From positions 1-36,426 of the forward strand of contig JAUCBJ010008842.1 of NCBI GenBank assembly GCA_032718475.1: a stretch of 36,426 bases of DNA, read 5' to 3'. The notes beneath the pieces are model-generated. The model did no database searches and was not told the origin of the DNA. It saw only the letters and a program-made list of their open reading frames with translations. The first letter of the stretch is position 1; every line of letters begins with the position of its first letter. The DNA is from Nemertoderma westbladi (taxonomy: Eukaryota > Animalia > Xenacoelomorpha). This document shows positions 12,335 to 36,426 of this stretch, in pieces. The position numbers and the translations under genes are program-made.

Positions 12335-12343
12335 CTCCCCCCC
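12335..12343 (-). other. Polypurine tract
   Basis: The - strand reads gggggggag immediately before the TGTTAGC start of the 3' LTR. Confidence 0.85.
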
Positions 12344-15649: not shown

Positions 15650-16069
15650 GGCGCAATACAGATGAGTGACAAGTTTCTGATGGTCTGCACAGTGCGAGAA
15701 TGGCCTATTTTCTATCTAACTACGCCTTTTAGCCTAATTTCTATTACTTAATTTTGTAGCTAACAAATGTACCCTATTTGCAATTTCTGTCCGTTGCTTT
15801 AATTATGTTCCAGAATAATTTCCCTCCTGTTACCATAATTTGTAATCTTTAGCCCTATTTATTCTATTTTATTTCTAATCTATTTCTACTATTTACTGCT
15901 TATGGATTATTCTATTTCATAATCCACATTCTGACCTACTCTATGGGCCTGTGCAGTACAGCAGTATATGTCGCGTGGCCTACACGATCAATCCAACTGT
16001 ACTCATATGCCCCCCTCTCGCTACTAACTACTAACTAATATCTATTCTATGTATACCCTTCCACCTCTA

Positions 16070-16600
16070 TCTCTTACTAATCGGTACTACGTACCCTCTT
16101 ACTACTCTCTAACTAACTAACGGTACTACGTACCCTCTAACTCTTACTCTAACTCCACTAACGGTACTACGTACCCTCTTACTACTCTCTAACTTCACTA
16201 ACGGTACTACGTACCGTCTTACTACTCTCTAACTCCACTAATGGTATTACGTACCCTCTAACTCTTACCCTAACTCCACTAACGGTACTACGTACCCTCT
16301 TACTACTCTCTAACTAATGGTACTACGTACCCTCTTACTACTCTCTAACTAATGGTACTACGTACCCTCTTACTACTCTCTAACTAATGGTACTACGTAC
16401 CCTCTTACTACTCTCTAACTAACGGTACTACGTACCCTCTTACTACTCTCTAACTAACGGTACTACGTACCCTCTTACTACTCTCTAACTTACGGTACTA
16501 CGTACCTCCTAACTAACTAACTAACTAACTCTAGGTACTACGTACCTTCTAACTGACTAACTCTAGGTACTACGTACCTTCTAACTAACTCCTAACTAAC
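16070..16600. repeat. Internal tandem array (~35-38 bp unit, about 14 copies) between pol and the accessory ORF
   Basis: Unit ctaa(c/t)ggtactacgtaccctcttactactctctaa; each copy carries the ggtac-tac-gtacc mini-hairpin. Confidence 0.93.
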
Positions 16601-16713
16601 TAACTCTAATTTTTTTATTTTATTTTTATTTTATGTGTGGGAAGGGCGTCTCGCCCTCAATCCCACCCCCCTCAGTCCAAACTTGGACGACTAAACTACA
16701 CTCTAACTCCACC

Positions 16714-19700
16714 CTAAGGTGCCCCTTCTAATAGACAGCATTTCCCTACAGCTCTCCTGTAGGTTTTTCTGTCTTTCGCACCTATCTTGCCACCTATCCG
16801 CACTTCTACCGATCGGACTCTTCCGTCCTCATCGGAATAAGTGCCTACGACTCTCGCCAACCGCCACTGGTTGTTGATGATAGTATCATCCGTAACGATT
16901 ACGAGATCTCCCTCTCTTAACTCCCTATTCGACTTCCTCCACTTGCTTCTTTTGTGAAGCGTGGGTAGGTATTCCTCAACCCACCTCCTCCAATACTCTG
17001 CGCTTATTGCTTTAGCGACCTTCCAACTCTGGCAGGAGTGTATGTCATCTGGGTCTACACCCCGCATATCGATGGTCGCTGGCCTTTCCATTAGAAAATG
17101 GCTGGGTGTCAGCACATCTAATGACTCAGGGTCATCATTCTCCGGATATAGCGGTCTGCTATTAATGATACCCTCGCACTTCGCAAGCACTGTCCTCAAG
17201 ACGTCCTCAGTGACCATGTGGGTGTTCATTAGCTTCGTCATGAGACGCTTGTAACTGCCCACCAGTCTCTCGACGCATCCTAGTGTATGTGGTGCATACG
17301 GCGTCCTTCTCTCCCACTTTACTTGTCGTCGTCTCATGGCCACCCTGACTTCCTCCCCTTCCAAGATGTCCAAGGCCTCTGCCATCTCGATCTCTGCTCC
17401 CACAAAGTTGGTTCTGCTGTCGGAGTACATTACTGCGATCGTCCCACCTTTGCGGTCTCTGAATCTTTCTAATGCATTAATAAATGCTGATGCGGTTGCA
17501 TCTTGGGCGAGTTCTATCCCTACCGCCCGCGTGTTGTTACATACGAAGATAATACCGTAGCGTTTCTCCGTGTGCCGCATCACCTTGATCTTTATCGGCC
17601 CGAACATGTCCACACCGCAATGTGTAAATGGCGGGTCGTGCTGTCTTACTCTACTCGCTGGTAGTGGTGCCATCTCTTGTATGGCTCGCTCCTTCTTCGC
17701 TCGTCGGCAGGTCTGGCACTGCCCCACTACCGCTTTTACCTTCTTCCTCAACTGCTTGACCCAAAAGGTCCTCCTTATCTCCGTGAGAGTTCGGTTGGTG
17801 CCCCCGTGCAATATCGACTTGTGGGAGTCCCAGATAATCTGGTGGACTATTGGCGATCCTATGGGAATGATGATGGGTTTCGGTGGTACGACTATGCTGT
17901 TGTTGTATCCCACCCTAGAATTCTTTACTAGAATCCCGTCGTCATTAAGTTGTGGCGACAGCGTGATCAGCTCGCTGTCCCGTCGAAGGTGCTGTTGTTT
18001 ACCGACGCATTCCACCTCGTCACCATAGTTCTTCCGTTGTTCATAGCGGATGACTGCCTTGGCCGCTCCTTCCAGATCTATGGTTGTCCTGATCTTCTTG
18101 TCTTTGCCAACTCCCGCGAGGAAATTCCCGAAGGCTCTCCAGTACACCACTGATTTATTGGTCTTATACCAACTAGAGCTGTAGCTGAGGAGTTTATCTG
18201 TCGGGTTATTGCACAGTTCTTCTGGTTTAGGTTGCACGTCCCTTATCTCCCTCACCATCTGGGAGTATATCTCTTCTCCCTCTGAATCTCCCTCTTCTCC
18301 TTCTGACACGACCTCTCCTGAGTCCGGGTCCACCTTTCTCATCGGCGGCCAGGCCTCCTTGTCGCTCAGAAACTGCGGCCCGTGTTGCCACAATCCTTCC
18401 TTTTTTAAGAAAGTGTGGCGTGCCACGCCCCTTGATAACAAGTCCGCTGGGTTCTCGTCCGTCGGGCAGTAGTGCCACCTTTCCAATTCTGTGGTCGCCC
18501 TTATCTCGTCCACCCTATTCGCGACGAATATTGGGTATCTCGTCCTTTCGTTATGTAGCCAACCAAGCACTACCATGGAGTCCGTCCAGTAGTGTGTCTC
18601 CACTATGTTGGGAATAGTATCCACTAGGTAGGCTGTGGCTCTAACTCCTAGTCTCGCAGCTGTCAATTCTAATTTGGGAACTGATGCTGAATCTGGCGGC
18701 GTTGACTTTGCTTTGCTAAAGGCCAGTCTGGGCTTGTGAGCCCCCTCTCATTGTACTAAATAAAGTGCCGCTCCGTACGCCTCCAACGACGCATCGGAGA
18801 ACATGTGTAGGTCCAGATTCGTCATGTTCCCATCCGGGAAATACACTCGTGGCATGTTGTATGTTCCCATCTTCTCCAAATCTTCTGTCCACTTACACCA
18901 CTGCTTCTTGATCTCCTCTGGTACCTCTACGTCCCACTCATCCTTCAATTTGTATACTCTCTTGAGTATCTGTTTCCCCGTGACTAATAGTGGGGATGCT
19001 AGACCTAGGGGATCGTATATCCTTGCTATATACGACACATAGCCCCTCTTCGTGTGGATGCCTGCGCCCTCCTGGCTCAGCTGGTACTTCAGTTCGTCTG
19101 TCTCTCTGTTCCACACGATTCCCAGTGCCTTCTGATGAGATTCTGTCCTCTTGTTCGCCATGTCCTGCCCTTTGGCTGTTGTGGGATTATCCATGGTCGA
19201 TTCTGGTCTCTTGTCCTCTATCGCCTTGATAAATTCCTCCGAACTGGATTGGAATTTGGTCAGGTTAAAGCCGGATCCTTTTAGGATGTCGCGAACCTCG
19301 CGCCCTGTGTCCAGTATCTCCTTAACCGTATTTCCAGACTCCATTCCGTCATCTACGTAGAAGCCGCGTCGAATCATATCGATGGCCCTAGTGCTGTATC
19401 TATCCTCCTTCCCCTTTACTGTATCTCTCACTGCCATAGTCGTCGTAAATGAAGACGACTTGGCTCCCATGTTCTGTATTATCGACGGTTCTTCCTCGCC
19501 GTCGTACCATAAGAAGCGTTGACTGTCGCTATCTTCCTCCGTTACACGGACTTGGTTGAACATGCCTTCTATGTCACACGTGAAGGCGTGTTTCCCATTT
19601 CTAAATCTAAGTAGGACCTCTATCCCCGAGTTGTATATGTTTGGACCTTCTAGCAGATAGTCGTTTAAGCATTTTCTGTTGGTCTTTGCCGATGCGTCAA

Positions 19701-22655
19701 CTACCATCCGCAGTTTACCTTTCTTTGGGTCTAAAGCCACGTGGAGTGGCAGGTAATATGTCCTGTCCGTGTTTGGTTCGTCGACCGGTAACTCCACGGC
19801 CCATCCTTTCTCGACGTACTTCTTAATTGTTCTGTGGATGTACTCATTCTTCTCGGGGCTCCGTTTTAGTGTTTGTTTCAGCTTGCGGAGCCTCGTGAGT
19901 ACCATCCCTCTATTATCGGGCAGTGGTAACTTCGGTAGCTTCCATACCATTCCTATGGTGTACCGCCCCTCGTCGCACTTCATAGACTCCTCTACGCTCT
20001 GCTGAGCCTGTTTGTCTTCCACCGAGGTCCCGACCCCGGTCTCCTTTAATCCTTCAAAATCCTGTCTGAGCTGTCTTTTAAGCTGCTCCTCTGCTCTCTC
20101 ATCACTCATTTCCTGCATAGTTCCCGCGAACATGCATCCTGATGTCTCCGACATCCTAAATGGTATCTTGCTCTTGATTGGGCCACTTAGCGTCCACCCG
20201 AATGGTGTCAGTATTGCCACCGGGTCACACTGCTTGTCTTCGCCGAAGACCGTTTGCATTCTTTCGTGGGCCGTTGGGCAGTCCATTCCCACTATGATGG
20301 ATACCTTCCTAACGTCCACATCTGGGATTGAGAAGTCAATATCATCCAGAAATTTATATTGTTCGACCTCGATGTTGGTTGGCCGTCTGGCATTGATGTT
20401 TATTGACTCTATCACTTGGATGGGGTCGATGCTCGCCCCATAGTCGCATCCTGGTGCTATTGCTGCGATGGTGCACCGTCCGGTTCTCATCTCCAGGACC
20501 TCATCCTTGCTGGAGATGGTTGTTACCGCCATTCTACTTGGCCTCGTTCTCAATCCTATTTCTTCGGCCACCCAATCCTCGACTAATGTGAAGGCAGCTC
20601 CACTATCAACCAGCATTAGTGTTGTTACTGATCGATTGCCTTCTCCAATCACTCGCACGGGTACTACCCCAAGTAGCACCGTTCCTCTCTTCTTCGCCCC
20701 TACTGTGCTCGTTGCCATCGTTTGGCCTTTCCTTTGACCGAACTTGACCGGCGTCTCCTTGCATTGCCTAGCTCTATGTCCACTCATCACACATCGCGAG
20801 CAGATCTTATTCCTCGCCGCATAATCTACCTGATCTTCCCTAGGTAGCGCTTGCCAGTACCTGCAGTTCATGGTTTGATGAAGCGCATTTGTATGTAGCT
20901 GGCATTTGCTCTTTGGGTCGTAGCCCTCCTTATACAGTGCATCGCGTATCGCAGCTGCGTTTGTACCAAAGTCCCTACTATTCTTATTGTTTGGGTTCGG
21001 CCTACTGGACGTACTGGGGTTATATTTGTTCGTGTTGTTATTGTTCCCCTGTCCGTTCCATGGTGTGGTCTTACCTTCGGCTACCTGTGGACTTGCAGTC
21101 CCCTGCGTCGCTGCATATGGCAGTGATTGCCTGAGCTTCGGTAATGCGTTTGACGTATTGTGCTCTGGTTTCGGTCTATGGTAATCCGTCTTCGGTCCCT
21201 TTCCCAGGCTATCCTCGCTATAGACTGGGTCGGTTATTAGTTCAGCTTCGTAGTTTAAGAAGCTTGACATTTCTTCTAAACCCGGTTCCGCACCCTTCCT
21301 ATCTCGAGTGGAGAAAGCGATTTTCCTCCACTTGTTGCGCAACCACATCGGTAGTGCCTGCGCTATCGTGGTGATGTTGTTGGACGCGTTGAGTTCGTAT
21401 GGCGCGTCTAGCGTCTTTAACACGATTAGCGCCTTCTCGACCTTGTTCGCGAATGTCTTAATGCTAACGGGATTATCCTGTAGGCCACCCGATGTTATGC
21501 CTCTCAGGGTCTGCCTGATGATCTTGGCCGGGTGCCCGTATTCCCTGTCCAGTGCCCGCCATGCCGTTGTGAAGCCGCCCTCTATGCCCTGATATTGCCT
21601 CACGATGTCGTATGCTGGGCCTCCTGTGTATACTTGCAAATACTTTAGGCACTCCGCCTGCGTTAAGTTCTTTGTTAGTATTTCGTTACTATACATACGC
21701 CGAAACTGGAGATATTCTTCCGGCCTACTCCCATCGAATTTGAATGGTTCCACGGGTGGTAATTCGATCCTTGTTTTTAATGCATCGATCAATGTGGCCA
21801 TCCCCATCGCCTGCGCTTCCAATGGATTCGATGGATGTTGTATAGTTCCTCCTGTTGGGTGCGGTCCGCCCGTCCTATTTTCTGCCTTTCTTTGGCTTGG
21901 GTATATCATTGGGGGTAACGGCCCCCTCCATATTTCTGTGTCACACGACCTATTTTCATCCAAGGGTCTCGTTGTTCTTGCTCCTATCGGGGTATATTGT
22001 TGATATTGCGATGGGGGAATGTCACCCTGTCCCCCCCCCCCCCCACCGGTATGTTTGGTATTGGGGTTGATGTTAATATATTGGGGCCCATGCATCTATC
22101 CGCAATAATTCCCCCCTCCCCTGGGTATATGTTATGTCCTTGCATGCTGTAGTCATACTGCTGTACTGGTACCGGTATAGGCCTATCAGCTTCTGGCCTA
22201 CCTGCCGGTATGTACTCCGCGACTTCCGGGTTTAATTCCGTCGTCCGCGCTATCCTATCGCCTACATTATTCCTGTCAGCATGGCCTATGGTATGTGCAG
22301 TAAGGCCTACAGTATGTCCTACAGTCTGTATGTATTGCTCGGGATCGAAGTTTATTCTTCTCGAATAATCCTCCCCGCGGCTACCGTACTCTCGATCTGT
22401 AGGTATATCCCGTCGGAAAGTTTCTCTTCGACCCTCTCTACTACTCTCGTCTACGTGCCGGTACATCGCGTACCCCTCCCTCGACGCGTAACGCGTCTCG
22501 TTAGGTCGCGTCTCTCCGGGACGACGGCAATCTCCCGGAGTTCGACCCCACCGACTCTCCCTTTCCATCTCCACCACCGACGGCTCGCTATCCGTCCTCA
22601 CTCTCCTGTCGTTCGCGGCGATACTTCTTCTGCTGTCTTCTCTTCTTCTCCTCTC
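16714..22655 (-). pseudogene. BEL/Pao gag-pol polyprotein, interrupted
   Basis: Gag (PFKFDGSRPEEYLQFR, Cys/His knuckles), protease LVDSGA, RT (CDIEGMFNQV, FYVDD), Pao RNase H (FSDAS, VPKLEL, WTDS, NPADLLSRG) and integrase (H-H-C-C, GVDMFGP, ERLV). Defects: in-frame TGA at 18748-18750, probable frameshift at the C-run 22031-22044, missing N-terminus. Confidence 0.92.
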
Positions 22656-22707
22656 AGTTACCCAATCTCGTGGCCCCCAATATTGCTTAACGGTTGACTT
22701 TGTGGGG

Positions 22708-23077
22708 TGTTAGCTTATTCAATTCCGCTAACACCCCACAAAGTCAACCGTTAAGCAATATTGGGGGCCATGAGATTGGGTAACCAATAACTCGTGTCAC
22801 CCCAACAAGGTGGGAAGGAGAAACGCACAATAAGGGACAGGGGCCAAACCCCTAACAGAGGGAGAATAGCTGGAGTGAACGGGAACACTCCAAAGGGCGC
22901 CAACAGGGATATTAGCCAATCAGGGGGGGGGGGGGGGAAGCATCGGCTAGGTACTGTAGCAAGGCCAAACCGTGCAATATATTATTAGGTACCAGCAATC
23001 AGTTATTCAGTTATCTCAGTGTGTTGTTGGTGTTAGTTAGGTTAGTTTAGCTAGGGAAGTACCGGGACTTCAATCAC
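22708..23077 (+). repeat. Inverted partial LTR copy (370 bp), preceded by a short direct LTR fragment (22657-22714)
   Basis: Reverse complement of LTR positions ~23259-23625. Confidence 0.93.
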
Positions 23078-23625
23078 TGTGACGGGATCCACGAAGGATC
23101 CCGATTTATCCGTTTGTCAATCTACGCGTCCCCGCCGTGTGTGAAAGGTAAAAGAGTTTGCATTGTTCGTCGTATATAATTTCCGGGTATAATAGATAGA
23201 TATAAATAGTATGTTGTAATGTAGAGACTGAATGTTGATATGTGGAAGGCGGGATACGGTGATTGAAGTCCCTGTACTTCCCTAGCTAAACTAACCTAAC
23301 TAACACCAATAACACACTGAGATAACTGAATAACTGATTGCTGGTACCTAATAATATATTGCACGGTTTGGCCTTGCTACAGTACCTAGCCGATGCTTCC
23401 CCCCCCCCCCTGATTGGCTAATATCCCTGTTGGCGCCCTTTGGAGTGTTCCCGTTCACTCCAGCTATTCTCCCTCTGTTAGGGGTTTGGCCCCTGACCCT
23501 TATTGTGCGTTTCTCCTTCCCACTTTGTTGGGGTGACACGAGTTATTGGTTACCCAATCTCGTGGCCCCCAATATTGCTTAACGGTTGACTTTGTGGGGT
23601 GTTAGCGGAATTGAATAAGCTAACA
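23078..23625 (-). repeat. 5' LTR (548 bp)
   Basis: tgtgacggg...gctaaca followed by the TSD aaacc. Confidence 0.95.
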
Positions 23626-24104
23626 AAACCATTAAGGCCGCGGATCCCATAGACGCCATTGCATCACCTTTACATGTTTCTTACGGTGTCCGCTGTTTAA
23701 AAATTTGTAAAAAGCGGATCCCGTTCATACAATTCAATTTCCTGATTGTTGAACAGTAGTAAAATACCGGTACCTAAAATTCTCGAATACTGTAGTTAGC
23801 AGTGTCTCTGTTAGAACGTATTCACGGTGAAACGTCGGTGATATTCGTGAAGAATCGTCTTCCTACTGTTACGGCGAATCGAGATCCATCTATGGCAAAT
23901 CTGAGGGTTCGGGGTAAGTCGTTACAGTTGCCCTTTCCGAAGCAGACGAAGTGAAGTCTAGAAGCCCTAATATGGAGAAGGTGGTACAACCTAGCTGACA
24001 AATAATGTATCTCGTAGGAACCTCAACGGGCTCGGGAAAAACAGGGAGGGAAAGAGTGTTGAGAAACACTAATATACAGCACAGCGTTTTACCGCGTTTT
24101 TTCC

Positions 24105-25157
24105 CATCTAAATGTCATTAAATGTTCTGCGTTGTTTACAATGTAAATGTCATTAAATGTTGTGCGTTTTTTCCAATGTAAATGTCATTAAATGTTTTGA
24201 GTTTTTTCCAATGTAAATGTCATTAAATGTTCTGCGTTTTTTCCAATGTAAATGTCATTAAATGTTCTGCGTTTTTTCCAATGTAAATGTCATTAAATGT
24301 TCTGCGTTTTTTCCAATGTAAATGTCATTAAATGTTCTGGGTTTTTTCCAATGTAAATGTCATTAAATGTTTTGAGTTTTTTCCAATGTAAATGTCATTA
24401 AATGTTCTGCGTTTTTTCCAATGTAAATGTCATTAAATGTTCTGCGTTTTTTCCAATGTAAATGTCATTAAATGTTCTGCGTTTTTTCCAATGTAAATGT
24501 CATTAAATGTTCTGCGTTTTTTCCAATGTAAATGTCATTAAATGTTCTGCGTTTTTTCCAATGTAAATGTCATTGAATGTTTTGAGTTTTTTCCAATGTA
24601 AATGTCATTAAATGTTCTGCGTTTTTTCCAATGTAAATGTCATTAAATGTTCTGCGTTTTTTCCAATGTAAATGTCATTAAATGTTTTGAGTTTTTTCCA
24701 ATGTAAATGTCATTAAATGTTCTGCGTTTTTTCCAATGTAAATGTCATTAAATGTTTTGAGTTTTTTCCAATGTAAATGTCATTAAATGTTCTGCGTTTT
24801 TTCCAATGTAAATGTCATTAAATGTTCTGCGTTTTTTCCAATGTAAATGTCATTAAATGTTCTGCGTTTTTTCCAATGTAAATGTCATTAAATGTTTTGA
24901 GTTTTTTCCAATGTAAATGTCATTAAATGTTCTGCGTTTTTTCCAATGTAAATGTCATTAAATGTTTTGAGTTTTTTCCAATGTAAATGTCATTAAATGT
25001 TCTGCGTTTTTTCCAATGTAAATGTCATTAAATGTTTTGAGTTTTTTCCAATGTAAATGTCATTAAATGTTCTGCGTTGTTTACAATGTAAATGTCATTA
25101 AATGTTCTGCGTTCTTTCCAATGTAAATGTCATTAAATATTTTGAGGTTTTTCCATG
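24105..25157. repeat. 35-bp minisatellite, about 30 copies
   Basis: Unit aatgtaaatgtcattaaatgtt(ctgc/ttga)gttttttcc. Confidence 0.97.
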
Positions 25158-25541: not shown

Positions 25542-27084
25542 TCAGTTTTCTGGAGTGCCATAAAACCGAAGGGCTTTTTGACTCTTATTACTCATGTCAG
25601 GTTCACGTTGTTGTAGGGTTGTCTTTAGAATGGAATCAGGCTTGCATTGTTTCTGAGACCGGCTGTCATTGGCTGCTGCTTCTGTGGATATCAGCACTTC
25701 CTTTGGGTTCACTCGATTTATTGTAAGTCGTGAAAATGTCGTCAGTGATATTTTCACCGCACGCCGTAAGCTAAAACGCCATTTTGTTGGGTCCAACCCG
25801 CATTCCACTTCGCACACCACAAGTTGCAATAACTTTGACGTCAAACGAATCATGTTTAAACACCCTCCGAACAAACCCATGCAAATAATAAAGGCCATCG
25901 ACGTTGCCTGGTGATCGCTAAAATCTGTCATCACAAAGAATATATTAAACAACTTCTCCAATATATTCCCTTTCAATATGTTTAACAATTTGTTATTATC
26001 AGTGTTGGTACCGGTACCGTTTCTGAGGATTCTAGCGTCCTGCAACACTTTCGAATTGCGGGCGTTTTCGGCGTGAACGCTGAGCAAATCGTCCGGTGCT
26101 GGGTGAGCCGATTCCGGATGGCTGTAAATCTGTGTGAATATTGGAGCGGCTAAATGTGGGACCCTCGACGGGGAGTTTGGGACGATACTCTGGAAGGTGT
26201 CGGAGGACTTAGCAACTAAGTAGTAATTATCGAATGTATAAACATCGTTGTTAATTAGGAAATTCATTGCAGATACATCTTTGCATTTTTCGATATATGT
26301 TGGTCGGATTAGCAGACTGCCGTCTGTATCTAACTGACTGACGGTTTTCTTATCGTTATGAACGTGTTCTATTAAAGGGCGGCTCATACACTCCCCTTTG
26401 TATTTAAGCGAATCGAGAATCTTGTAGTCGGTAACTTCGGTACAACTGTGACTCGTAATGAGACCATGGCTGAACTGACCAGACATGTTAGGGTGAACGA
26501 AGGTCTGTAACATCTCCCGCGGAAAGACCCTGGCTAGTGCAGTCCAAACGACGGCGTTGTCCCGCTGCCGTAAACAATCTTCGAAAATCGCATCCCCGTA
26601 AAGTTTGCTCAGATAACTGGTGATGTTAGAGGATAAAACGTCGAAGGCCTCTTGTATAGTTGGACTTTTAGGGTCAGGAGAGGCAAGGGCACGCGGCATA
26701 ACGTATACAACATCATCTTTGTCTATCAGTGCTATTTGTTTCTTCTGATCAAGTTTAATCTCAGATAATATTTTGTCATCTCCTTCAACGACTTTTAAAT
26801 ATGAAGCGTGAATGTTCCACTTTAATTTTGGAATTTTCAGCCGCACAATTCTGCGATTTTTATTCCTGTTTTTGTCAAATAATTTGACCTCGTCATCAAT
26901 AGGCCTATCTTCAGACATTAGATTGGCATGATCATCTATCTCTGTTGTAGTTACCAATGCTATAAATTCTTCTAATCCTTTCTTCTCGTAGGTATGACTA
27001 TTTTTCGACTCCTTTTTATCCCAAACTATAATTTTCGAAGTGCCTTTCATTGTGATAATACAGCTGCTATGTTGATATTTACAC
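25542..27084 (-). CDS. Terminal coding exon of a gB/chuvirus G-like class III fusion glycoprotein gene
   Basis: Acceptor ttatcttccaaaacag|G TGT AAA. Encodes CKYQHSSC..IIVW, C..Q....VWTALARVFP, C..V, SLKYKGECMSRPLI, SQL, EKC, F.I....Y.F.NY (gB domain III/IV pattern: CYSRP, GQLG, EPC), then a hydrophobic segment (SMAFIICMGLFGGCL) and a tail. Confidence 0.85.
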
Positions 27085-27225
27085 CTGTTTTGGAAGATAA
27101 TTCGAATGCCAAATAATGATGAAATTAGAAAAAATTTGACTTAGGGTCGCATTTATCTTTTCAAGGCCTTATGCTTATTCTTAACAAGGAGAGAGATTCT
27201 TAACAAGGGGGGGGGGGGGGGGGGG

Positions 27226-27732
27226 GGATCTCCTAAAGGGACATCTCGTAAATTTTTTCCTACTTAATAAGTAGGGGTCCCGAGTTAATAAGTCGGGATT
27301 CCGAGATAGTAACTCGAGATCCCGAGATAATAAGTCGGGATCCCGAGATAATTTGAACAACATTGGTTGGCTGTTGTGTTGGTTGGATGGGTTGTTTTTC
27401 GCGGGATTTTTAAAAGTTAGTCCCTATAATGTTAAATGATGGGCCTACGCAATGCAGTAATATTATTATATTACAGTATTATAGCCTACCCTACATGCCT
27501 ACTTACACAGCAACTTTGTTTAGTGCATTACTGTTGTCTGAGACACAGACTGACAGTAATGGCCTATCTGACATGTAACTGTAAGCTTTTAAAAAGCCGC
27601 CAATCGAGCCAAACAAAACCCAGCCAATCAAATGTTGTACAAATTATCTCTGGATCCCTATGATCTATGTCGGGTGTCGGGATCCCGACTTATGTAGGGA
27701 AAAACATGGTGATATGTCCCTATAGGGGGTCC
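27226..27732. mobile_element. MITE-like element in an intron, with internal 21-bp repeats
   Basis: Imperfect TIRs ggatctcctaaagggacatctc / gatatgtccctatagggggtcc; tcgggatcccgagataataag repeats at ~27270-27350. Confidence 0.65.
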
Positions 27733-27789
27733 GATGCGCCCCAACTAGCCACTATAAAGCATTCGTGCCGAAACAAAACCTCTACTGAC

Positions 27790-27862
27790 TCACTTACGGG
27801 GATCAAACCCACAACTTCTGGGGAGATGTGATTTCAAGCTGAAACCACTTCGCCGAGGCTGG
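27790..27862 (-). mobile_element. Possible decayed tRNA-derived SINE head
   Basis: The - strand has an A-box-like cggcgaagtggt and a B-box-like gggtttgatcccc about 35 nt apart. Confidence 0.35.
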
Positions 27863-28065
27863 ACCTTCAATCATTTTGGTTGGGATGACTTGTAAAAAAC
27901 CTGGTCTTTTCTCAAATTATTGCTAACTGAAAATCGTTGGCCTCAGACAGCAATTGAATTTCAAATATTCCATTGCAAGTGACAGTACAAACATGCCCAC
28001 TGCACTGCTACTACAGAGCTACAGTATGTCAAACAAGCAACAACAATCCACTACAAACAGCTTAC

Positions 28066-28317
28066 CCGCCGTTGTTTCCAAGAAGATAACCATGAATATT
28101 AGTTGAGACCACCCAACTAGGAGGGAAGGACACCGCGTGCGCTACGCGGATGCGACAGTATTTCTCTGACTCATTCCCATTTGTGTCTAGGCAATGGGGC
28201 GTCATAAAAACATTTCCCTTTAGATAGTCGGTGTCTTGGAAGGGGCGGCGGTTTGCACCAGTTCCGCACCATTTCTGGGTCCCGGTATGATGCTGTAATT
28301 GACCCGCTGTTTTATCA
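28066..28317 (-). CDS. Internal 252-nt exon of the gB-like glycoprotein gene (absent from the ORF track)
   Basis: Acceptor ctttttgttcaattttacag|, donor GG|gtaagc, phase 2 at both ends, no stops: (S)DKTAGQLQHHTGTQKWCGTGANRRPFQDTDYLKGNVFMTPHCLDTNGNESEKYCRIRVAHAVSFPPSWVVSTNIHGYLLGNNG(G). Confidence 0.85.
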
Positions 28318-28537
28318 CTGTAAAATTGAACAAAAAGACATTTAAGTTATACACCCTGTAATTGATATTATAATTAAACATACTGTACTCCAACACTACA
28401 ATATAAGTTCAAATTACCGAAACAGAAATCATGATGACTATCTATCAATATTCTCCCGTGCTTAAAATAGTTATGATATTATAATTAAAGAAAGCATACT
28501 AATTCGAAAATGAGTATGAAATCAAAAAATTTCAGGA

Positions 28538-29880
28538 ATGAAAACAAATAAGTTGTTCCATTTTCCAAAGAAGGGCAACCTAACAATCTATGGATCTTTT
28601 CGTGGAATCTCATTGATCTCGATTGCTGCCAAGTTATACCATAGAATTATTTTACATAATATCAGGGATCCTGTTGATAGACTGTTATGTAGGAACCAAA
28701 ATGGCTTCCGTAAAGGTCGTAGGACCATGGAGTCTATTCTGGCACTTAGAAGGATAATCGAAGTCGAAGAGTTATCAATAAAGAAAGACAGACAATTGGC
28801 TGTTATCTTTGTTGACTTGTTTTAGACCTGCGATTCAGTCTCCGGGCCAAATATGTTCAGCAGCATACTTGCAGCATATGGGATTTCTAAGGAAATTATT
28901 GCAACTATCAGATCACTGTTCGATGGTTCCACCACATTTATACTGCTGATGGACACGGATCCATTCGAAGTACAGTATTATGGGGAGTCCTTCAGCGTGA
29001 CACCATTCTTATTCATTATTGTGGTCTTAATAAAGATGGGGTGATGGTGACACCCCTTACTGGCACAAGAGTAGAGGAAATCCCACAAAGTACCTTACTG
29101 ATCCTAGTCTCTGGTGATGACTTAGTAGGGGTACTGTCAGAATCACTAGAGGGAGCCTAAAGGCCCCTCTGCTCATTGGAGCAGGTTGCTTCTAGAGTTG
29201 TTCTACAGTATTTTTAAACTCCAAGAAGATCAACATTTTTACTGTGAACCTTGGCAGCCGTCAAGAAATGTCTCATCGAAAGTGCATAAGCTCCAAGGAT
29301 GGCTTTCTTGAGCATGTGGATGACTTCTGCTACTTGGAATCATGGATCATGGATCCTGAAGATCTTCAGATACGTAAGGGGAAGGCATGGTCAACATTGA
29401 ATAGATTGTCCAGGATTTGGAAGTCCCATAAAATACAACCGAATCGGTTATTTAGGGCACCAGTAGTACCAGTTTACTAATGTGGGAATCCATGCTGGGT
29501 TCTAAGTGCATATGACACCAAATATATCGTAATTGTATAGCACTTATACAAGAATGCTAGCCGGGTTCTTTGTATGAAGTACAATGAAAACAATCTCCAA
29601 ATCAGACTCTTTACAACTTTGGAGGTGTCTCATTGGTTCACCAAGCTTGACACTTGAACAGAGCCACATCCGCTTTGCAGTACATTTCTTTCGCCGTGAG
29701 GACCAACCAGTTCATAATCTTGTACTTTGGCAGCCTCATAGAGTGCATAAGCATGATGGACAGCCCATGACTTTCTTGAGACACACCTTAAAGGACACTG
29801 GCCTTGAAGATGCAGTTGATCTAGCAAATGTCATGGGTGACAGGGAGTTGTGGCGGCGTAATTTTGTCGTCAAGCCGGAA
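28538..29880 (+). mobile_element. Decayed 3' part (RT) of an RTE-clade LINE, intronic
   Basis: PKKGNL..FRGISLISIAAKLY..RNQNGFRKGR..ILALRRIIE, PFLFIIVV, VDDFCYLESWI; many stops and frameshifts. Confidence 0.85.
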
Positions 29881-30114
29881 CAGCATATAATTAATATATA
29901 TACTGTATAATGCAGCTGCAATGTAGTTTGTTGATAGTGGTACTGTAGTAGTTATTCGAAAATGCAGATCCAATCCATGTTTCTCTTCATTAAGTGGAAT
30001 TAATTTAGGGAAACGCAATGAGAGTATAAAAGTAACAACAAGCGCGATAATCTTTAACTTCATATTAATATATTAAAGTACGTAAAAACAATGAAATAAT
30101 TTCCCATGCATAAT

Positions 30115-31001
30115 TTCTAAACGTATTGATCTTTACACAAAATCATCATCAGTAATAATGTACAAAATTTAGCCTAAATGTTGCATAATGCAAGGTTTGA
30201 ATTTATAATGTTGGCGCCAAAAAAAAAAAACATAATAAAAAGACGATTCTAAGCTACTGTATAAATCGCTTAAAAAACTGTAAAAATATTTACTTTTATA
30301 GAAAGGGATGCGGTAGCTAATAATGTAGTAAATGTAAAAATCTAAAATTAATACTATCGATCGGTATGTATGAGTCACAAATCTGTGTATAGGTTCATGT
30401 TAGTGATGTGTGCGTTGTGTTTGATTAGGATAAACAAACTGTATCTATATTAGTGTGTGATAATTATAGAAGTTCTAGAGATATCGATTTAACTTTAGTA
30501 TTTAAAGTGGGTTTCACCACGCGAATTAGTATGTCTTCTTTGATATGAGATTCGAATTGAGTGTTAGAAGTAGCAAATATAATAAAGTTTTTAGTATCGG
30601 TTGGGTGGTCCTCTCCTCAGTAAGTGAATGTTCTAGAACGGCGGAGTAATTAACTGGGTTTACACGTTTGCCAATTAGAGGAGATGTTGCTGTATGTTCA
30701 CCGATGCGGGCATAAAAGTGTCGGGTAGTAAGTTTCACCGACATAGGAAGCTGGGCAGCTTCCACATTTGTATAAATATACTATATTGGACTGCAAGTGA
30801 GTCGGCATCTTATCCTAAGCTGAAAACATGCGACCAATCCTAAACGCCGGTTTAAACAGTACTTTTAGATCTGCGTATGGAAGGGAGATTTTAAATAGTT
30901 TGAGGAGTCGATTTTTAATGAGAGTAGAGTGGGTGCCATTGAAGAGTAGTACGATGACGAATTGGAGTTTGTTGCAAGTTTGTGTGGGAGGTTTATTGTT
31001 A
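30115..31001 (-). mobile_element. Penelope-like element, 3' part (linker, GIY-YIG endonuclease, 3' region), degenerate
   Basis: The - strand translates to ...KVLFKPAFRIGRMFSA*DKMPTHLQSNIVYLYKCGSCPASYVGET(fs)TRHFYARIGEH...SAVLEH. Confidence 0.8.
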
Positions 31002-33930
31002 CGGAAGAAAACTAAACAAACGCGGTTTAACTGGGACCGAGCAACGCCCCAACAGTTGTCAGATTATAACCAGAGTGTTAGTACCAAGTTAGAAGAGTTC
31101 TGGGCAACACAACATGCTAGCGCAACCTGGGAGGAGGCCAACTTGGAACCAGCGGCAGTCCAGCTTGAACAAATATTTCTCACAGCTTCATTAGAACATA
31201 TACCAATAAAAAAGAACAGGCGCCAAGGACACCAGCACCGAATAAAATCTGCCAATTTGGCCCAGCGGTCAAGGCAAACAAAACAGCTACACTCACTGTG
31301 GAAAAGAGCAGCACCTGACTGCGTCTTAAGTACAAAGTTAGAGGAATCATATAAGGAGTCCAAACGTGGGATCAGGCGACTCAAGAACTGGCTCCTCCGC
31401 AATAAAGAAACTCAAGAAGTGGAAAAAATCACTCAGCTGGAAAAGAAGGATCCACGAAATTTCTGGAGGAATATCAACCCAAGGGCCATGATTAGCCCGA
31501 ATAAGGATGTCGAAGAGAAACTAATTAAACAATATCAAGAAGCAGCACAGGCAGATGCAAACGAAAATCTTACACGGGAAGTGGAGCATAATATATCAGT
31601 GGCGTGCCAGCACAGTAACATTCCTTCGGTGTCCAAAGCTACAGTACGGAGGGCTATCCTAGCCATATCCCCAGGGAAAGCGCCAGATTTTGGATCTTTA
31701 GTAATAGAGCACATACTCCTAGTAAGTCTGGACATTGCTACAGACACAATAGCCATGCTATTGAATGCCTGTCTCAGACTGGGCAAGGTCCCCTCTTGCT
31801 TTGGCAGGACTGTAGTCACGAACATTTTCAAAGGAAAACAAAGGGATCCACTAAAAACCAACTCATTCAGGCCTATCGCCTCTATAAGCATTCTTTCCAA
31901 AGTGTTTGAGGCTGTGATTCTGTCAGAATACCTCATGGCACTTCCTAAACCCCGCTCGCAATTCGCCTATAGGAAAAGGTTGGGTACAGATATTGCACTA
32001 GCAGTAATCATGGAACAATTGGAGATGCAACGGGAAAATGGGAGGAATTCAATCCTGTGCAAGCTGGACATCAAGTCAGCATTCGACAGTGTCGAATTTC
32101 ATGTTCTCCATGACAAGCTACTGGAAGTATTAAATCCCCATATCTGTGCAGTCCTGCTTGACTACTATAGGAAAACAATGATTCATCTGAAATTTGGGGA
32201 GTTGGTTGAGTCCATTGGAATCAAGTTGACTCGTGGCCTCAAGCAAGGTTCATTAATCTCACCTGTACTATTCACCTTCTATATCGGATTCTTACCAGAT
32301 AAACTGAAGGAATCGGGATTCGGTCCAGGAAAACTGGCATCATACTCTCATCTCTTTTGTTACGCGGATGATCTATTTTTAACCGGGGAGTCAGTTAAGG
32401 ATCTAGAAGATATGATAGTGATAATCTCTCGTGAACTCGCACGTGTGGGTCTATCTGTGGAAGGCTCAAAGACAGAATGGACTTATATCCTAGGATCTGG
32501 ACGTAATGGTCAGGGGATTCCATGTTTTCTTAAAATAAATGGTGTACTTATACAGCCAACAAAGTCATTATCATTCCTTGGCGTCTCACTAAATATACAA
32601 AGGACCGCAGTATTGAAGGAACTCAAACGATATCTAACAATAATCTCAGAGACCTTCCACCAGAAGGGTTGGACCGCAAGGAGAATAAACCCGAGCACAC
32701 TCTTCGCTCTATGGAACACAGCGGCGGTCCCATCGCTACTGTACAAGATGAGATTCCTGGTGGGACGGCTAACTGACAAGGAACTGCGCGAACTTGACAT
32801 TTCCTATAGGAAGGTGCTGCGTGGACTGATGCACGTAAGCTGTTACGTGCCAAATGCTGTTTTGCACAAGATTACTAACACAACTCCAATCTCCGCTGTG
32901 ATCGCTTATGACAACATGTGCTGCTTGCAACGTGCCTGCAATGGTCCGAATGCCACAGAATGTAACTTTCTTGTCTGTCGATACCTTTCTCACTCAACAA
33001 TTAAATCCCATGGTGGTCTGAGCTCTTGTCAGCAAACTTGCAGCTCCCTGTATCCACTTCCAAGCGTAAGGTCTCTCTGCACGGCCAGGTATGACAGGAG
33101 ACAACTTAGGACACGGGTCGAGTCGGGATCACTTACAATCCCAGAATTGGGTGGGGTGAATTTCATTCAAAACTGCTTTAGGTGCAATGTTCCCTTTAGT
33201 ACCAAAAGAAGGCGGATCCAGCAATACTTTGACCGATAATTCGCTTTGTCTGACTATGATTTTATTTGGATTCTATCAATCTTAATCCATATCATATATA
33301 TAATAATATCAATCCCTATATCATCAATACATATACATAATATCAATCCATATTCTAATCACATACTTTATATTTTTAGCCAGCTGTTTTTATTGTGCAT
33401 TTGCGTGCATTTTTATTTACATTTACCCGGTATTGTCGCCTCGTGCGAATTAAATCAAATGATGATATTAGTTGATCTGGTATAGTTACAATTATACTAC
33501 AGTATGCTTATTGTATATGTTTATTATATACTTTGGTATCTTAGTCACTCTTGCAGTAGGCGTACTCCACATAAGCAGCTGATGGGAAATTCAATAAAAT
33601 CAATAAGGACCAGCTACTGTATCTTTCTTTTTAATATAGTATATTTAAACAATAATTTTATTTAAAGCACTTATTTTCAAAACCACTATAAGGTCTTTCG
33701 TTTAATCGATTTTACTTATTGCTATTTTACTGCAGAATTTGTCTTGAACACTCTATCATATACCTTACCCCGGCTGGGGGTGTATCTTTAAATATATATA
33801 TATCTCTCTACAATTGTGCAATATTTAACTGGATTATTTCACACATGTGTAATTAATGCGTGCACATTTTTTATCATGTTTCTTATTTTGTCGCTACATG
33901 CGAATTAAACAAAGAAATGAAAAAAATGAA
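31002..33930 (+). mobile_element. 5'-truncated non-LTR retrotransposon (RTE-X/L2-like RT) inserted into the Penelope-like element
   Basis: Open RT frame to 33239 (FRPIASISILSKVFE, SQFAYR, LDIKSAFD, GLKQGSLISPVLF, YADD, FLGV); no APE; A/aaatg-rich tail; apparent TSD tgtta (30997-31001 and 33931-33935). Confidence 0.85.
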
Positions 33931-34660
33931 TGTTATTCATATTATTTAGTAATTGTTCGGTGGCACCATTGAGTATGCTCTTTGGATAACCGTTGTTTTG
34001 AAACTTCTTGTGTAATTCTAAAAGGTTTCTGTGGAAAATTAACATGTTTGTACAAATGCGATACAGCCTATGTGAGTGTACAGTATAGACGAGAGTAAAT
34101 TTATAAGAAAACTGATGAAAGCTGTGAAAGCTAGTATGCAATCCTGTATTTATGGGTTTATGGTAAATGGTTGTGGTGATAGATAAATTATTGTTGATAG
34201 TAACAAGAACTTCCAAGAAAGGTATTTTAGAATCGGTTTCGTGTTCACATATGAAAGTTATATTAGGGTGCTGTTTGTTGAGGTAGTCTAAAAATAGTAA
34301 CGATTGTTCCTTAGAATCAAAGATCATGAAACAATCATTAATGTATCTTCTATATAATGTGGGTTTATTTGACGAAGGACAGTTGTTTATCCAGTTAGTT
34401 TCGTGGTAGGCCAAAAAGGCCTTGGCTAGTGCCGCTCATAGTGGTGAACACATAGCAACTACATCAATTACTGTAGCTTAAAAAGTTTGTTATTATAAAT
34501 GAATGTTTCATCATTAACCTTGTATTCAAGCAACCAACGGAGTTGTTGTGTCATCGTCGGTGGGAAATAATTGTTTAATGATAATGTCTCTATGGTTTCA
34601 TCGAGCGGGATGTTAGTAAATAAAGATTTAACATAAAAAATGCAAATGTGCATTCTTGTT
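33931..34660 (-). mobile_element. Penelope-like element, RT part, degenerate
   Basis: VKSLFTNIPLDETI, LYRRYINDCF, YLNKQHPNITF, IPFLEVLV, IYHKP..TG and NNGYPKS are PLE RT/thumb motifs. Confidence 0.85.
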
Positions 34661-34965
34661 AAATTTGAGTTTAGATAGAGCGTCAGTGAAGGAGAATGTG
34701 TCTGTGAGCGTGTGCGTGGGCGTGTAAGGGCTGGTAACGGCAGCTCAAAACGGCAGCTCAAAACCAAAACCTAGTAAATCTTTTAAATTTTCGAGATAAT
34801 CGAAATCGCGTTTAAAGTTTTTGGACTTTAAATTTGCTTTATATTTTGATGAGATTTGATGAGTTATAATTTTGGGTACATTTAAATGCATACTATCACT
34901 ATCTAGTAAAAATTCACAAACTCCATAAAAACACTATTCGCTAGTAAACTACGCACTAACTTCGG

Positions 34966-35690
34966 CTAGAGTTCCGTATGCAGTCGCATTTGATATTTTG
35001 ATATTAATTAATGAAATTATGTACAGGTACTTTTTGCATAGTAATATCACCACTGACATCATTGCAACATTTTTCAAAAGAAATATTGTGTTATAGAACT
35101 TTAGCTAATCGACTAGCTGGTAATTTTTAAAAACAAGATTTATTAAATATTAACATTTTGTACTAGCTAGATTTTGCTAATTTTTTTAAATGATTATACA
35201 GTAGAACACCAGAAGACCTGATGGCTATCAATTTTGAAAAATATTTTTGTTCTTGAACACAATTTTTATTTTTTATACTAGCTAGTTTTTTCTACTTTAT
35301 TTAGGCTAGATTTCCGTATAGCACTGCATTTTTAATATATAATTGTTACTATGGCAACGTTGAAGAGTTATAGAACAATAGAAAAGTATTATATACCGGT
35401 ACTATTCTAGAACATAAATAAACTAAAAAATCTAATGTTCTAGAACATATGGTTACTTTAAAAAATATACCTTGATTTCTTATTACCGGTAGCAAATGTT
35501 CTGAAATTAGCTATTATTTTCTTCTAGAACACAATATTTTTTTGAGAAATTTCTGTGAGGAAGTCAATGATGGTAATTTAGTTATACTGTAGTAGGGTTA
35601 TACAGTAGTTTAGGTAATTTAAAATAGTCATAATATATGCCTATATATTTCATAAAATGTTTTTAGAAAATGCGACTCCATACGGAACTG
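34966..35690. mobile_element. HINE/MITE-like repeat with a nested relative starting at 35306
   Basis: agttccgtatgcagtcgcattt (34970) is inverted with aaatgcgactccatacggaact (35668-35689); 35306-35450 matches 6921-7060. Confidence 0.65.
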
Positions 35691-35924
35691 CTCCCCTAAC
35701 TTCCAAAAAAATCTACTAAGGTTCTAAAACATCCACCATTGCCACAAAAACACTAAAACACACAAAATAATTAATGGTTAAAAAAAATGAGGCAGGGGAT
35801 ATTGACAGGGCGAAGTAGTACAACATGGCCCCCTTGCAGGGCTAAATCGCGATCTCTGGAAAATCACATTCGGATTCAAGGGAACAGATTAAACCACGAC
35901 ACCGAGGAGGTAGTAGCTGCTTAC

Positions 35925-36362
35925 CTATAGGTCGGAGCGTCCACGCACTTTCTATGGTTGTTCTGGAAGCGGTTCTTGTCCTCCCACTCGTTTGTGTCGT
36001 CGACCGGGCATCGCTTCTCTCGGTACCACGTTCTGCACTCTTCCACCCCTGGCGTCCGCAATATGTATTGGAAACATGTCTCATTTAAATTCCCGGCCCT
36101 GTATACTTGCCGCATTAGGTAACATTCCGCGACCTTAAACCGGTAGAGGGTTTCTGTTCGAACGTAGATCGATACTTTTACTTCGTTCTCGGTTGGTTGC
36201 CTAGGATACACGCACTCCGGAGGCGGCGCCAAATCAAATACAGCGCTTGGAACTCTCTTATCGCAAAAATATAATGCCGGTATAGGTTTTTTGTTACTTT
36301 CGAGATTCTGGGAACGGTCACTAGAATGTTTTGGGCAAAACCACACCAAAGTTTTTATACTG
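35925..36362 (-). CDS. Upstream coding exon of the gB-like glycoprotein gene (acceptor position uncertain: 36368, 36362 or 36359)
   Basis: LYFCDKRVPSAVFDLAPPPEC...VSIYVRTETLYRFKV parallels the herpes gB N-terminus (FYVC...VVQFEQPRRC...AVVFKENIAPYKFK). The exon ends TAT AG|gtaagc (phase-2 donor). Confidence 0.8.
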
Positions 36363-36426
36363 CTGTAGCTAGTTTTGGATAGTTATTAATTCGAATTTAG
36401 ATTTCCGTAAAGCACTAAATTTTTAA

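Follow-up and report, generated by a model that had tools for sequence, protein, structure and literature searches.

A candidate domesticated gB-type envelope gene with introns inside its coding sequence

A gene whose core is homologous to the class III fusion glycoprotein gB of herpesviruses, with its coding sequence split in three parts across 10.8 kb, was found in the stretch of DNA analysed here (36,426 nt in total, hereafter the window). The three-part, stop-free structure with splice-type ends and matching phase was confirmed, and splicing itself is a prediction. An env gene of retroelement or viral origin was probably domesticated and is spliced by the host, since three spliceosomal-type introns accompany a reading frame that is open next to transposon remnants in intron 1; the introns also argue against an element copied through RNA, which could not keep them. 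The present role tentatively preferred, at clearly less than an even chance, is that of a membrane-anchored surface decoy directed at viruses or retroelements that carry envelopes, and not that of a fusogen. Neither domesticated envelopes nor solo chuvirus glycoproteins are without precedent, and what appears to be new is the presence of coding-sequence introns in a class III gene. No domesticated class III or gB gene with introns inside the coding sequence was found in the literature searched, the scope of which excluded most subscription papers.

The three minus-strand segments (Table 1) join into one frame of 743 codons without a stop, with X at both junction codons. CAG or ACAG precedes each exon, GTAAGC follows directly after exons 1 and 2, and each exon holds a single open frame. 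Coordinates, lengths and signals agree exactly with the first-pass annotation, in which three exons with AG acceptors and GTAAGC donors, all in phase 2, had been joined into a stop-free frame of about 740 aa. Among the stop-to-stop frames of at least 80 codons on both strands of the window, 2 of 83 have as their terminating stop the TAA within a GTAAG donor, and because these two are precisely exons 1 and 2, the three-exon model goes beyond chance. The corresponding base rates among 3860 stop triplets are 55 for GTAAG and 6 for GTAAGC. Moreover, the GC content rises from 0.26-0.27 immediately upstream to 0.48-0.50 inside exons 1 and 2, and among 4180 40-mers ending in AG, the final 40 nt of the putative intron 0 come closest to the 3'-terminal 40 nt of intron 2, with a small lead over the next (score 26 vs 25). 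Exon 1 has no hydrophobic leader (maximum 12-residue hydropathy 0.23); the gene model places the start codon and the signal peptide upstream, outside the window, which ends 64 nt before exon 1. The 741 exon codons are free of stops while intronic fragments have stops in all three frames; the chance of such an open frame is 0.006 at 5% neutral divergence and 0.13 at 2%, and at 1-2% divergence it is unremarkable. In the predicted protein seven N-glycosylation sequons are present, of which five are N-terminal to the membrane anchor, the number already given in the first-pass annotation. Neither AATAAA nor ATTAAA was found within 640 nt past the stop, and the Rfam search gave 0 matches. In-frame skipping of exon 2 would be possible.

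Table 1. Positions of the gene, its introns and neighbouring elements in the window
Feature	Position	Strand	Remarks
Putative intron 0, 3' end	36363..36426	-	Ends CAG, GC 0.27
Exon 1, 438 nt, phase 2-2	35925..36362	-	Open frame, AG/GTAAGC, Cys spacing like relatives; probably N-terminal strands, start of domains II and I, first fusion-loop hairpin
Predicted first fusion-loop tip	36083..36109	-	Gap-free register from landmark Cys
Intron 1, 7607 nt	28318..35924	-	Decayed RT fragments, Penelope-like element split by LINE, MITE-like repeats
LINE in intron 1, open 806-codon RT frame	30819-33239	+	Splits Penelope-like element
Decayed RT fragments in intron 1	about 28500-29950	+	Every reading frame has stops
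Exon 2, 252 nt, phase 2-2	28066..28317	-	Open frame, pyrimidine-rich acceptor, GTAAGC donor, GC 0.50; probably second half of domain I plus extra Cys-containing sequence
Intron 2, 981 nt	27085..28065	-	Short inverted repeat and 21-nt tandem array
Exon 3, 1543 nt, 513 codons + stop	25542..27084	-	End of domain I, domain II, central helix (III), crown (IV), arm (V), membrane anchor, 99-residue tail
gB ectodomain match (PF00606), central helix and crown	26211..26660	-	Pfam, EBV gB, fold
Predicted single transmembrane segment	25842..25898	-	Best 19-residue hydropathy 1.78
BEL/Pao LTRs	11791-12334 and 23077-23625		Target-site duplication AAACC (5 nt) at both sides

Sequence and predicted fold both support homology of the exon 3 core to herpesvirus gB. 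Exon 3 matches Pfam family PF00606 (E 6.8e-12, 45.8 bits against a cut-off of 43) and not the Monjiviricetes family PF24664, which sets it apart from chuvirus-like glycoproteins, and its core matches EBV gB with an E of 5.7e-06. In a model folded from an alignment of gB-like relatives, helix 56-99 (44 residues) and the crown strands reach a pLDDT of about 70-94; a single-sequence model (pLDDT 33.7) was set aside as unusable. The structural comparison proposed in the first-pass annotation gave a predicted class III/gB fold for the exon 3 core: Foldseek on the core model yielded an E of 2.2e-08 with herpes gB in all 39 matches listed, at 14-24% identity, while VIA aligned 140 residues with 5ys2_A (Z 11.5, rmsd 7.1) and its best eight matches were class III proteins. 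By both sequence and predicted fold, helix, crown and arm are homologous to those of herpesvirus gB (PDB 2gum, 5cxf, 5ys2, 9yka), a protein described as requiring gH/gL (PMC13524379). Core cysteines, an arm-like segment and the anchor are retained in exon 3; the hydropathy of the anchor lies within the range of seven relatives (1.63-2.71), whose C-terminal tails measure 21-59 residues compared with 99 here. Entomopoxvirus gB-like proteins occur among the fold matches.

For the two upstream exons the shuffle tests were anchored, with settings chosen after free-end alignments had collapsed to short overlaps. Under five settings 0, 15, 11, 1 and 2 per 1000 shuffles reached the real score of exon 1, compared with 504, 51, 307, 673 and 537 for exon 2; for the first 26 residues of exon 3 the values were 9, 20, 3 and 0 per 1000. 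The free-end shuffles set aside gave 16, 76 and 35 per 1000 for exon 1 and 1000/1000 for exon 2. Exon 1 alone was not significant by hmmsearch (E 1.2-6.2 among 647 frames) or hhalign (probability 1%). It ranked 6 of 162 among candidate exons, with two short non-overlapping candidates just above, and exon 2 ranked 70 of 100, in a ranking that favours short inserts. The score of exons 1, 2 and 3 together was 112 against 126 for exon 3 alone. In Pfam-type domain scans exons 1 and 2 matched nothing by themselves and no recognisable host domain was detected in any exon. The similarity of exon 1 to gB-type N-termini thus seems weak and correctly placed, and exon 2 had no homology in five shuffle tests. 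Of the two PH-type modules that carry the extended fusion sheet (domains I and II), the parts assigned to exon 1 and to the start of exon 3 gain some support from Cys spacing and shuffles, and exon 2 gains none. The earlier claim of a class III/gB origin is supported for exon 3, and the gB/chuvirus-G motif order is solid for exon 3 and weak for exon 1, but could not be demonstrated for exon 2.

Identity to the nearest relatives is 21-29%, and the searches yielded nothing above 29%. Word-seeded protein searches returned 0 of 6765 candidates with exon 3 and 1 of 6377 with alignment A1, the latter already a member of A1. No usable match to residues 1-330 of exon 3 was obtained in the ESM Atlas, where relative P0009 groups among rhabdo-G, Monjiviricetes, gB and gp64 clusters. 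Viral contigs gave no matches for exon 3, relative P0013 or relative P0009, and metagenome contigs none for exon 3. Ten of 12 relatives were looked up, and the one with a name is a low-quality Ciona intestinalis model.

The first fusion loop appears less hydrophobic than in four relatives and the region looks remodelled. The loop 1 tip has one aromatic residue compared with 2-4 in these relatives, and a sequon begins where the tip ends; no position could be assigned to loop 2. The predicted domain I spans 142 residues against 88-109 in five relatives, and is thus 33-54 residues longer. The relatives' loop aligns weakly (2.2 bits) with HCMV gB 155-157, which have been named as fusion-loop residues (PMC4617298). 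As an argument for the decoy the loop is weak, because it relies on this 2.2-bit alignment, HSV-1 gB is described as hydrophilic at the equivalent positions and nevertheless fuses, and insect gB-type envs are reported to retain one loop only.

The view that the introns are packed with decayed transposable elements applies to intron 1, which in addition to decayed RT fragments contains an open LINE RT frame, but not to intron 2, where only short repeats and no transposon ORF were found. The Penelope-like element of intron 1, which has no Pfam match, is presumably one, as judged from motifs only. Both gaps were considered as plain transposon insertions and this was rejected, the ends of both introns having no terminal inverted repeats and repeats across the junctions of only 2 nt (intron 1) and 3 nt (intron 2). 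Likewise, the claim that no LTR, gag or pol is attached holds on the 3' side, with the refinement that a separate, near-complete BEL/Pao element adjoins, starting 1.9 kb past the stop. The gene as env of this element was rejected: it lies outside the LTR pair and the 5-nt duplication, and its codon use is uncorrelated with that of the three BEL ORFs (-0.07 to 0.02, compared with 0.64-0.77 among themselves; 0.24 with a host SPEF1-like gene). Viral or LTR-element domains were absent from 41 scanned ORFs of flanks and introns, of which three match LINE RT/endonuclease families. Hence the open frame is detached from gag and pol on the 3' side and in the introns, and on the 3' side separation of the gene from any LTR element is supported by the sequence.

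The proposed history begins with the germ-line integration of an intronless gB-type env, whose most plausible source would be a Ty3/gypsy or BEL/Pao element with an env gene or else a chu-like virus. This env would then have acquired a host promoter, a signal-peptide exon on its 5' side and three or more spliceosomal introns; selection would have preserved the open frame during the entry and decay of transposons in intron 1, and the protein is predicted to enter the secretory path, to be glycosylated and to form trimers via the central helix. These four steps are jointly considered quite likely. In a fifth step, with roughly even odds once the others are granted, the less hydrophobic loop 1, the nearby sequon and the extra domain I sequence would result in poor membrane insertion, and the protein would occupy the receptor or poison the trimers of related envelopes, similar to the proposals for Iris and for mosquito solo glycoproteins.

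According to the available descriptions, gB-type env is widespread in Ty3/gypsy elements, not in BEL/Pao alone, and ancient in animal retroelements (PMC13524379). This errantivirus-type env is the likely donor class and is likewise described with a five-domain ectodomain, an anchor, a variable furin site, variable loop-proximal Cys bridges and low identity between lineages; compared by description, however, it is an uninterrupted, mostly multicopy ORF beside gag and pol between LTRs, whereas the gene here has introns and no gag or pol on the visible side. BEL/Pao 'Anakin' elements are reported to carry chuvirus-like glycoproteins (PMC7642597, PMC10084718), and the solo chuvirus glycoproteins of mosquitoes, also class III in an animal genome, have been proposed as domesticated antiviral receptor blockers, a function that is a proposal there, in passages that mention no introns (PMC7642597). 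For Iris (CG4715) and Iris-B of Drosophila, domesticated from the env of a BEL-type element, a dominant-negative or decoy model is described, with the anchor kept, fusion features degenerate and an intron gained in one paralogue; in contrast to the gene here they are F-type (baculovirus F-like), not class III, with one intron of ~70 nt carved from the exon instead of three, one of 7.6 kb (PMC1262188). A bornavirus G orthogroup, likewise a host-retained class III glycoprotein, is reported to be under purifying selection in hosts (PMC11521997). In horseshoe crabs pieces of chuvirus G are described in spliced mRNAs, where the viral piece is downstream of the predicted ORF, whereas here the glycoprotein is the ORF and is interrupted by the introns (PMC12282059). 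MFUS-1 of nematode Mavericks is another predicted gB-like fusogen integrated in an animal genome, and belongs to an element that is bounded by TIRs and encodes polymerase, integrase and capsids; at this locus none of these was seen (10.1101/2022.07.12.499685).

Against the decoy it speaks that helix, crown, arm and anchor are all kept, as suits a working fusion machine, and that a related circulating envelope would be needed, with none found above the identity given earlier. A domesticated gB-type env that is still fusogenic, acting as a class III 'syncytin' in host cell-cell, gamete or vesicle fusion, is nevertheless regarded as rather unlikely; its trimer loops would enter the facing membrane and fold-back would bring arm and anchor to the loops. 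Its counterparts are the syncytins (class I) and the fusexins EFF-1, AFF-1 and HAP2 (class II), for which fusion has been demonstrated; these too are host uses of a virus-type fusion protein, whereas the gene here is class III and fusion putative. To our knowledge, those viral fusion proteins that hosts have domesticated and whose function is established are of class I or II. Class III glycoproteins kept by hosts have more precedents than the first-pass annotation implied, as solo chuvirus glycoproteins, bornavirus G and the horseshoe-crab pieces are in print (PMC7642597, PMC11521997, PMC12282059). All domestication evidence applies equally to a fusogen; the modelled helix and crown, the retained core cysteines and arm-like segment, a full-length anchored form that persisted long enough to gain three introns, the skippable exon 2 and the reported dispensability of the furin site in gB-type env would also fit. 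The less aromatic loop 1 with its adjoining sequon and the additional domain I residues point the other way, as does the description of Iris, the best-studied invertebrate precedent, as having lost its fusion peptide (PMC1262188). Thus, from the earlier proposal of a long-domesticated host gene for cell or gamete fusion or for receptor interference, domestication is retained as reasonable, whereas fusion gained no support over receptor interference.

It is considered distinctly unlikely that the spliced gene belongs to a mobile element replicating as DNA, or to an endogenous DNA virus (Maverick/Polinton-like, Teratorn-like or a DNA-transposon cassette), whose other genes would lie upstream of the window. 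DNA replication would retain introns, the 5' side is visible for 64 nt, entomopoxvirus proteins are among the fold matches, and nematode Mavericks are described with intron-containing cargo beside the gB-like fusogen; the Maverick core genes, however, are described as intronless (10.1101/2022.07.12.499685), and 8.6 kb of transposon-filled introns would be unusual in a compact mobile genome. Apart from the BEL and LINE pieces, which are self-contained, no polymerase, capsid, ATPase or transposase domain was found in scanned ORFs across 25 kb downstream, and terminal inverted repeats, pPolB, integrase, ATPase and capsids as Maverick/Polinton signs were absent on the 3' side and in the introns. 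Still less probable is a non-fusogenic adhesion, receptor or scaffold glycoprotein outside defence, in which the remodelled domain I would bind a host ligand and the long tail would signal or sort; the extra Cys-containing sequence, the tail length and the deep divergence from all envelopes found would suit it, but no exon has a recognisable host domain. Least probable is a partly wrong gene model or a dead gene, that is, an envelope relic with exon 2 or exons 1 and 2 unjoined to exon 3, or a recently silenced copy. The homology results for exons 1 and 2, the lack of a polyadenylation-type motif past the stop and the unremarkable open frame at low divergence would agree with this, while the donor statistics, the GC steps, the matching intron 3' ends and the Cys spacing of exon 1 disagree, as does the start of exon 3 at a Cys motif needing upstream sequence, in line with its shuffles.

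Hosts had ample opportunity to domesticate gB-type env, yet those reported consist of solo copies lacking introns or of incomplete fragments, with functions that are putative; a gB-type gene of full length whose coding sequence holds three or more introns would be a strong single-locus sign of domestication. The preferred decoy, if true, would be a class III counterpart of Iris. A fusogen would mean that every class of viral fusogen has been co-opted by hosts for membrane fusion, and in the case of cell fusion would be a candidate for unexplained invertebrate fusion events. Because exons 1 and 2 match nothing alone, ORF-based virus screens would miss such genes, and a splice-aware search could find more. 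Over its full length the SPEF1-like gene shares no more than 42% identity with any of the 120 matches listed, with hemichordates as the best and protists scoring too. BEL/Pao elements are metazoan, and on the basis of both observations the host is probably an animal.

The gene was modelled as three minus-strand exons, whose positions, AG/GTAAGC ends and stop-free frame were the same as in the first-pass annotation. Exons 1 and 2 are directly preceded by CAG/ACAG and directly followed by GTAAGC, and the intervening introns 1 and 2 have lengths of 7607 nt and 981 nt, respectively. The joined frame comprises 743 codons (X at both junctions) with 22 cysteines and seven sequons; the five reported earlier lie N-terminal to the membrane anchor. 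Since a phase-2 donor places TAA in frame, a clean statistical test of the donors was possible: the window contains 83 stop-to-stop frames with 80 codons or more, 13 of them minus-strand frames upstream of exon 3, and only two end at GTAAG, both as GTAAGC; these are exons 1 and 2. The base rate in the window was 55 GTAAG contexts and 6 GTAAGC contexts per 3860 stop triplets. Both exons have a GC content of 0.48-0.50, up from 0.26-0.27 in the sequence immediately before them. Transposon insertion as the origin of the gaps was rejected; no terminal inverted repeats were found on either gap and the junction repeats measure just 2 and 3 nt, so that the gaps look like introns at proto-splice sites. 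Splicing of exons 1 to 3 is predicted from sequence signals.

Features of the contig in forward-strand numbering
Feature	Coordinates	Strand	Description
Exon 1	36362-35925	-	438 nt, multiple of three, one open frame only
Exon 2	28317-28066	-	252 nt, multiple of three, one open frame only
Exon 3	27084-25542	-	open as far as stop
Nested insertion	30500-34780	+ in -	LINE (+) with open 806-codon RT frame inside decayed, presumably Penelope-like element (-)
BEL/Pao element	11786-23630	-	LTRs 11791-12334 and 23077-23625; AAACC target-site duplication on both sides
Pao-domain ORFs	22095-18748, 18747-16714		one stop between
Extra BEL ORF	13040-15715	-	891 codons, between integrase and 3' LTR
Inverted BEL LTR copy	22657-23080		373 nt, plus 57-nt direct piece
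SPEF1-like ORF	5972-6757	-	intact, CDS without intron
Tandem array	24094-25155		35-nt unit
Tandem array	8973-9539		22-nt unit
Tandem array	10200-10852		68-nt unit
Tandem array	16070-16600		35-nt unit
Tandem array	4779-5089		55-nt unit

Exon 1 is without a hydrophobic leader, and the window ends 64 nt above it. Among 4180 AG-ending 40-mers, the 40 nt immediately preceding exon 1 (36363-36402) best matched the 3' end of intron 2 (27085-27124; 26 versus 25), which gives modest support to a putative third intron upstream of exon 1. The 20-odd-nt pattern common to both 3' ends could be a splice signal of the lineage or reflect a common origin of the two introns.

Exon 3 matched the Pfam herpes gB ectodomain family PF00606 (E 6.8e-12; 45.8 bits, cut-off 43) and solved gB chains (best E 5.7e-06, the rest weaker; gB in 24 of 25 rows). 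When 1.84 billion representatives were scanned, 12 matched with 21-29% identity, all over the helix (domain III) and crown (domain IV). One of ten relatives looked up is a low-quality Ciona intestinalis model, one relative is grouped in the Atlas with rhabdovirus G, Monjiviricetes, gB and gp64 clusters, and a profile from six relatives matched HCMV gB at 1.4e-29. For fold prediction, residues 88-345 of exon 3 aligned with the 12 relatives were used; the model (mean pLDDT 62.9, beta domain at 80-94, 104 of 258 residues below 50) contains a 44-residue helix. All 39 Foldseek matches listed were herpes gB (best E 2.2e-08, TM about 0.36), and a viral structure library added nyamivirus, entomopoxvirus, rhabdovirus and chuvirus glycoproteins. 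Comparison by VIA-align gave Z 11.5 with the pseudorabies gB crown (rmsd 7.1, 140 aligned) and Z 6.4-6.8 with thogotovirus GP. After the core come an anchor of 19 residues with a hydropathy of 1.78 and then a tail of 99 residues. No furin-type site was found ahead of the helix, an absence described as common among gB-type env (PMC13524379). Judged from sequence and predicted fold, the protein is gB-type class III by its core.

The earlier gB-like assignment of the whole gene holds for exon 3, but it is weaker for exon 1 and fails shuffle tests for exon 2. Neither upstream exon matched Pfam, and the three-exon construct scored lower than exon 3 by itself. Exon 1, ranked 6th of 162 candidate exons with two short non-overlapping rivals just ahead, has the cysteine spacing of the relatives; its similarity to gB types was below significance when taken by itself, and the scores of its anchored alignments were reached by 0, 15, 11, 1 and 2 per 1000 shuffles. 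For exon 2, ranked 70th of 100, these values were 504, 51, 307, 673 and 537, leaving homology unsupported. Exon 2 was nevertheless taken as a probable real exon because of its splice statistics and the domain I span, which measures 142 residues between landmarks with it and 58 without it (88-109 in five relatives), so that skipping would cost 30-51 residues including the second-loop site. The predicted first fusion-loop tip, placed gap-free from a landmark cysteine, carries one aromatic residue, where four relatives have two to four, and ends at a sequon. The membrane-contacting end looks remodelled. This argument is a hint only, because the relatives' first loop aligns weakly with HCMV gB 155-157, which are fusion-loop residues, and HSV-1 is hydrophilic there (PMC4617298).

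Downstream of the gene, at a distance of 1.9 kb and in the same orientation, is a BEL/Pao element. Its 549-nt LTRs are 98.2% identical (5 mismatches, one 5-nt gap), indicating a young element; Pao domains were recognized in two ORFs, and no env was found inside it. Since it has its own LTRs and AAACC on both sides, the gene lies outside it. The two also differ in codon use: that of the gene correlated with the BEL ORFs at r -0.07 to 0.02, and with the host SPEF1-like gene at 0.24. Among 41 further ORFs of flanks and introns, three matched LINE families and none viral or LTR-element families, in agreement with the first-pass statement that no LTR, gag or pol is attached. An env of an intact LTR element was ruled out by the separate BEL boundaries and the absence of gag and pol on the visible side. 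The description of introns full of decayed transposable elements applies to the RT fragments of intron 1 (stops in all frames) and to a relic which we take, from its motifs, to be Penelope-like, but not to the LINE with its open RT frame. The chance of 741 stop-free codons under neutral decay is 0.36, 0.13 and 0.006 at 1, 2 and 5% divergence; the nested, decayed insertions would suggest the longer of these times.

An env whose element is copied through RNA cannot retain spliceosomal introns, and an intron of 7.6 kb with LINE insertions could be kept least of all. Three introns, including the predicted upstream one, an open frame and no gag or pol on the visible side therefore make the gene probably a domesticated host gene; the observation is real and unusual, and the gene would work like a domesticated envelope gene. 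An ancient and widespread feature of Ty3/gypsy elements is a gB-type env, present as an uninterrupted ORF adjoining gag and pol (PMC13524379), in contrast to the three exons without visible gag or pol here; gB-type env also occurs in BEL/Pao Anakin elements (PMC7642597). Host retention has been proposed for mosquito solo class III glycoprotein copies (PMC7642597), orthologous arthropod class III insertions, a bornavirus G orthogroup under purifying selection (PMC11521997) and horseshoe-crab class III pieces downstream of an ORF in spliced mRNAs (PMC12282059). The Drosophila gene Iris-B is a domesticated env with a gained intron (PMC1262188); it is F-type whereas the present gene is class III, and intron gain would be common to both. 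In the partly accessible literature, mostly outside subscription journals, no host gene was found that derives from a class III or gB protein and has introns in its CDS.

The product would be a glycosylated, single-pass trimer of the secretory path, trimerisation being assumed from the family. Ranked first, if tentatively, is that it acts as a decoy or dominant-negative protein against viruses or retroelements that bear envelopes; the apparent remodelling of the membrane-contacting end favours this, as do the invertebrate precedents Iris (PMC1262188) and the mosquito solo copies (PMC7642597). A working class III cell-cell fusogen used by the host ranks second because helix, crown, arm and anchor are all retained, and is rather doubtful. 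It is unlikely that the gene belongs, as a spliced gene, to a DNA element whose core genes lie upstream of the window; predicted gB-type fusogens do occur in nematode Mavericks (10.1101/2022.07.12.499685). Another surface role is a shade less likely still, and a wrong gene model or dead relic least likely of all.

The SPEF1-like ORF (sperm flagellar protein 1, CH_2 domain) has at most 42% identity over its length among the matches listed and is possibly a retrocopy or from a fast-evolving lineage. Together with the metazoan distribution of BEL/Pao elements, it points to a host that is probably an animal belonging to a sparsely sampled group. The extra BEL ORF carries a D-x-E-G motif near residue 154 and Cys/His knuckles, had no Pfam or PDB match, and presumably resembles a 3'-5' exonuclease. 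Extra DEDDy ORFs are reported for rotifer LTR elements (PMC5408684). Just inside the 5' LTR, the inverted copy of part of the LTR and the 57-nt direct piece form a fold-back whose short hairpin lies where the LTR ends, the expected primer-binding site position; this is either a real template switch or an assembly artefact. The tandem array at 24094-25155 sits between the gene stop and the BEL element.
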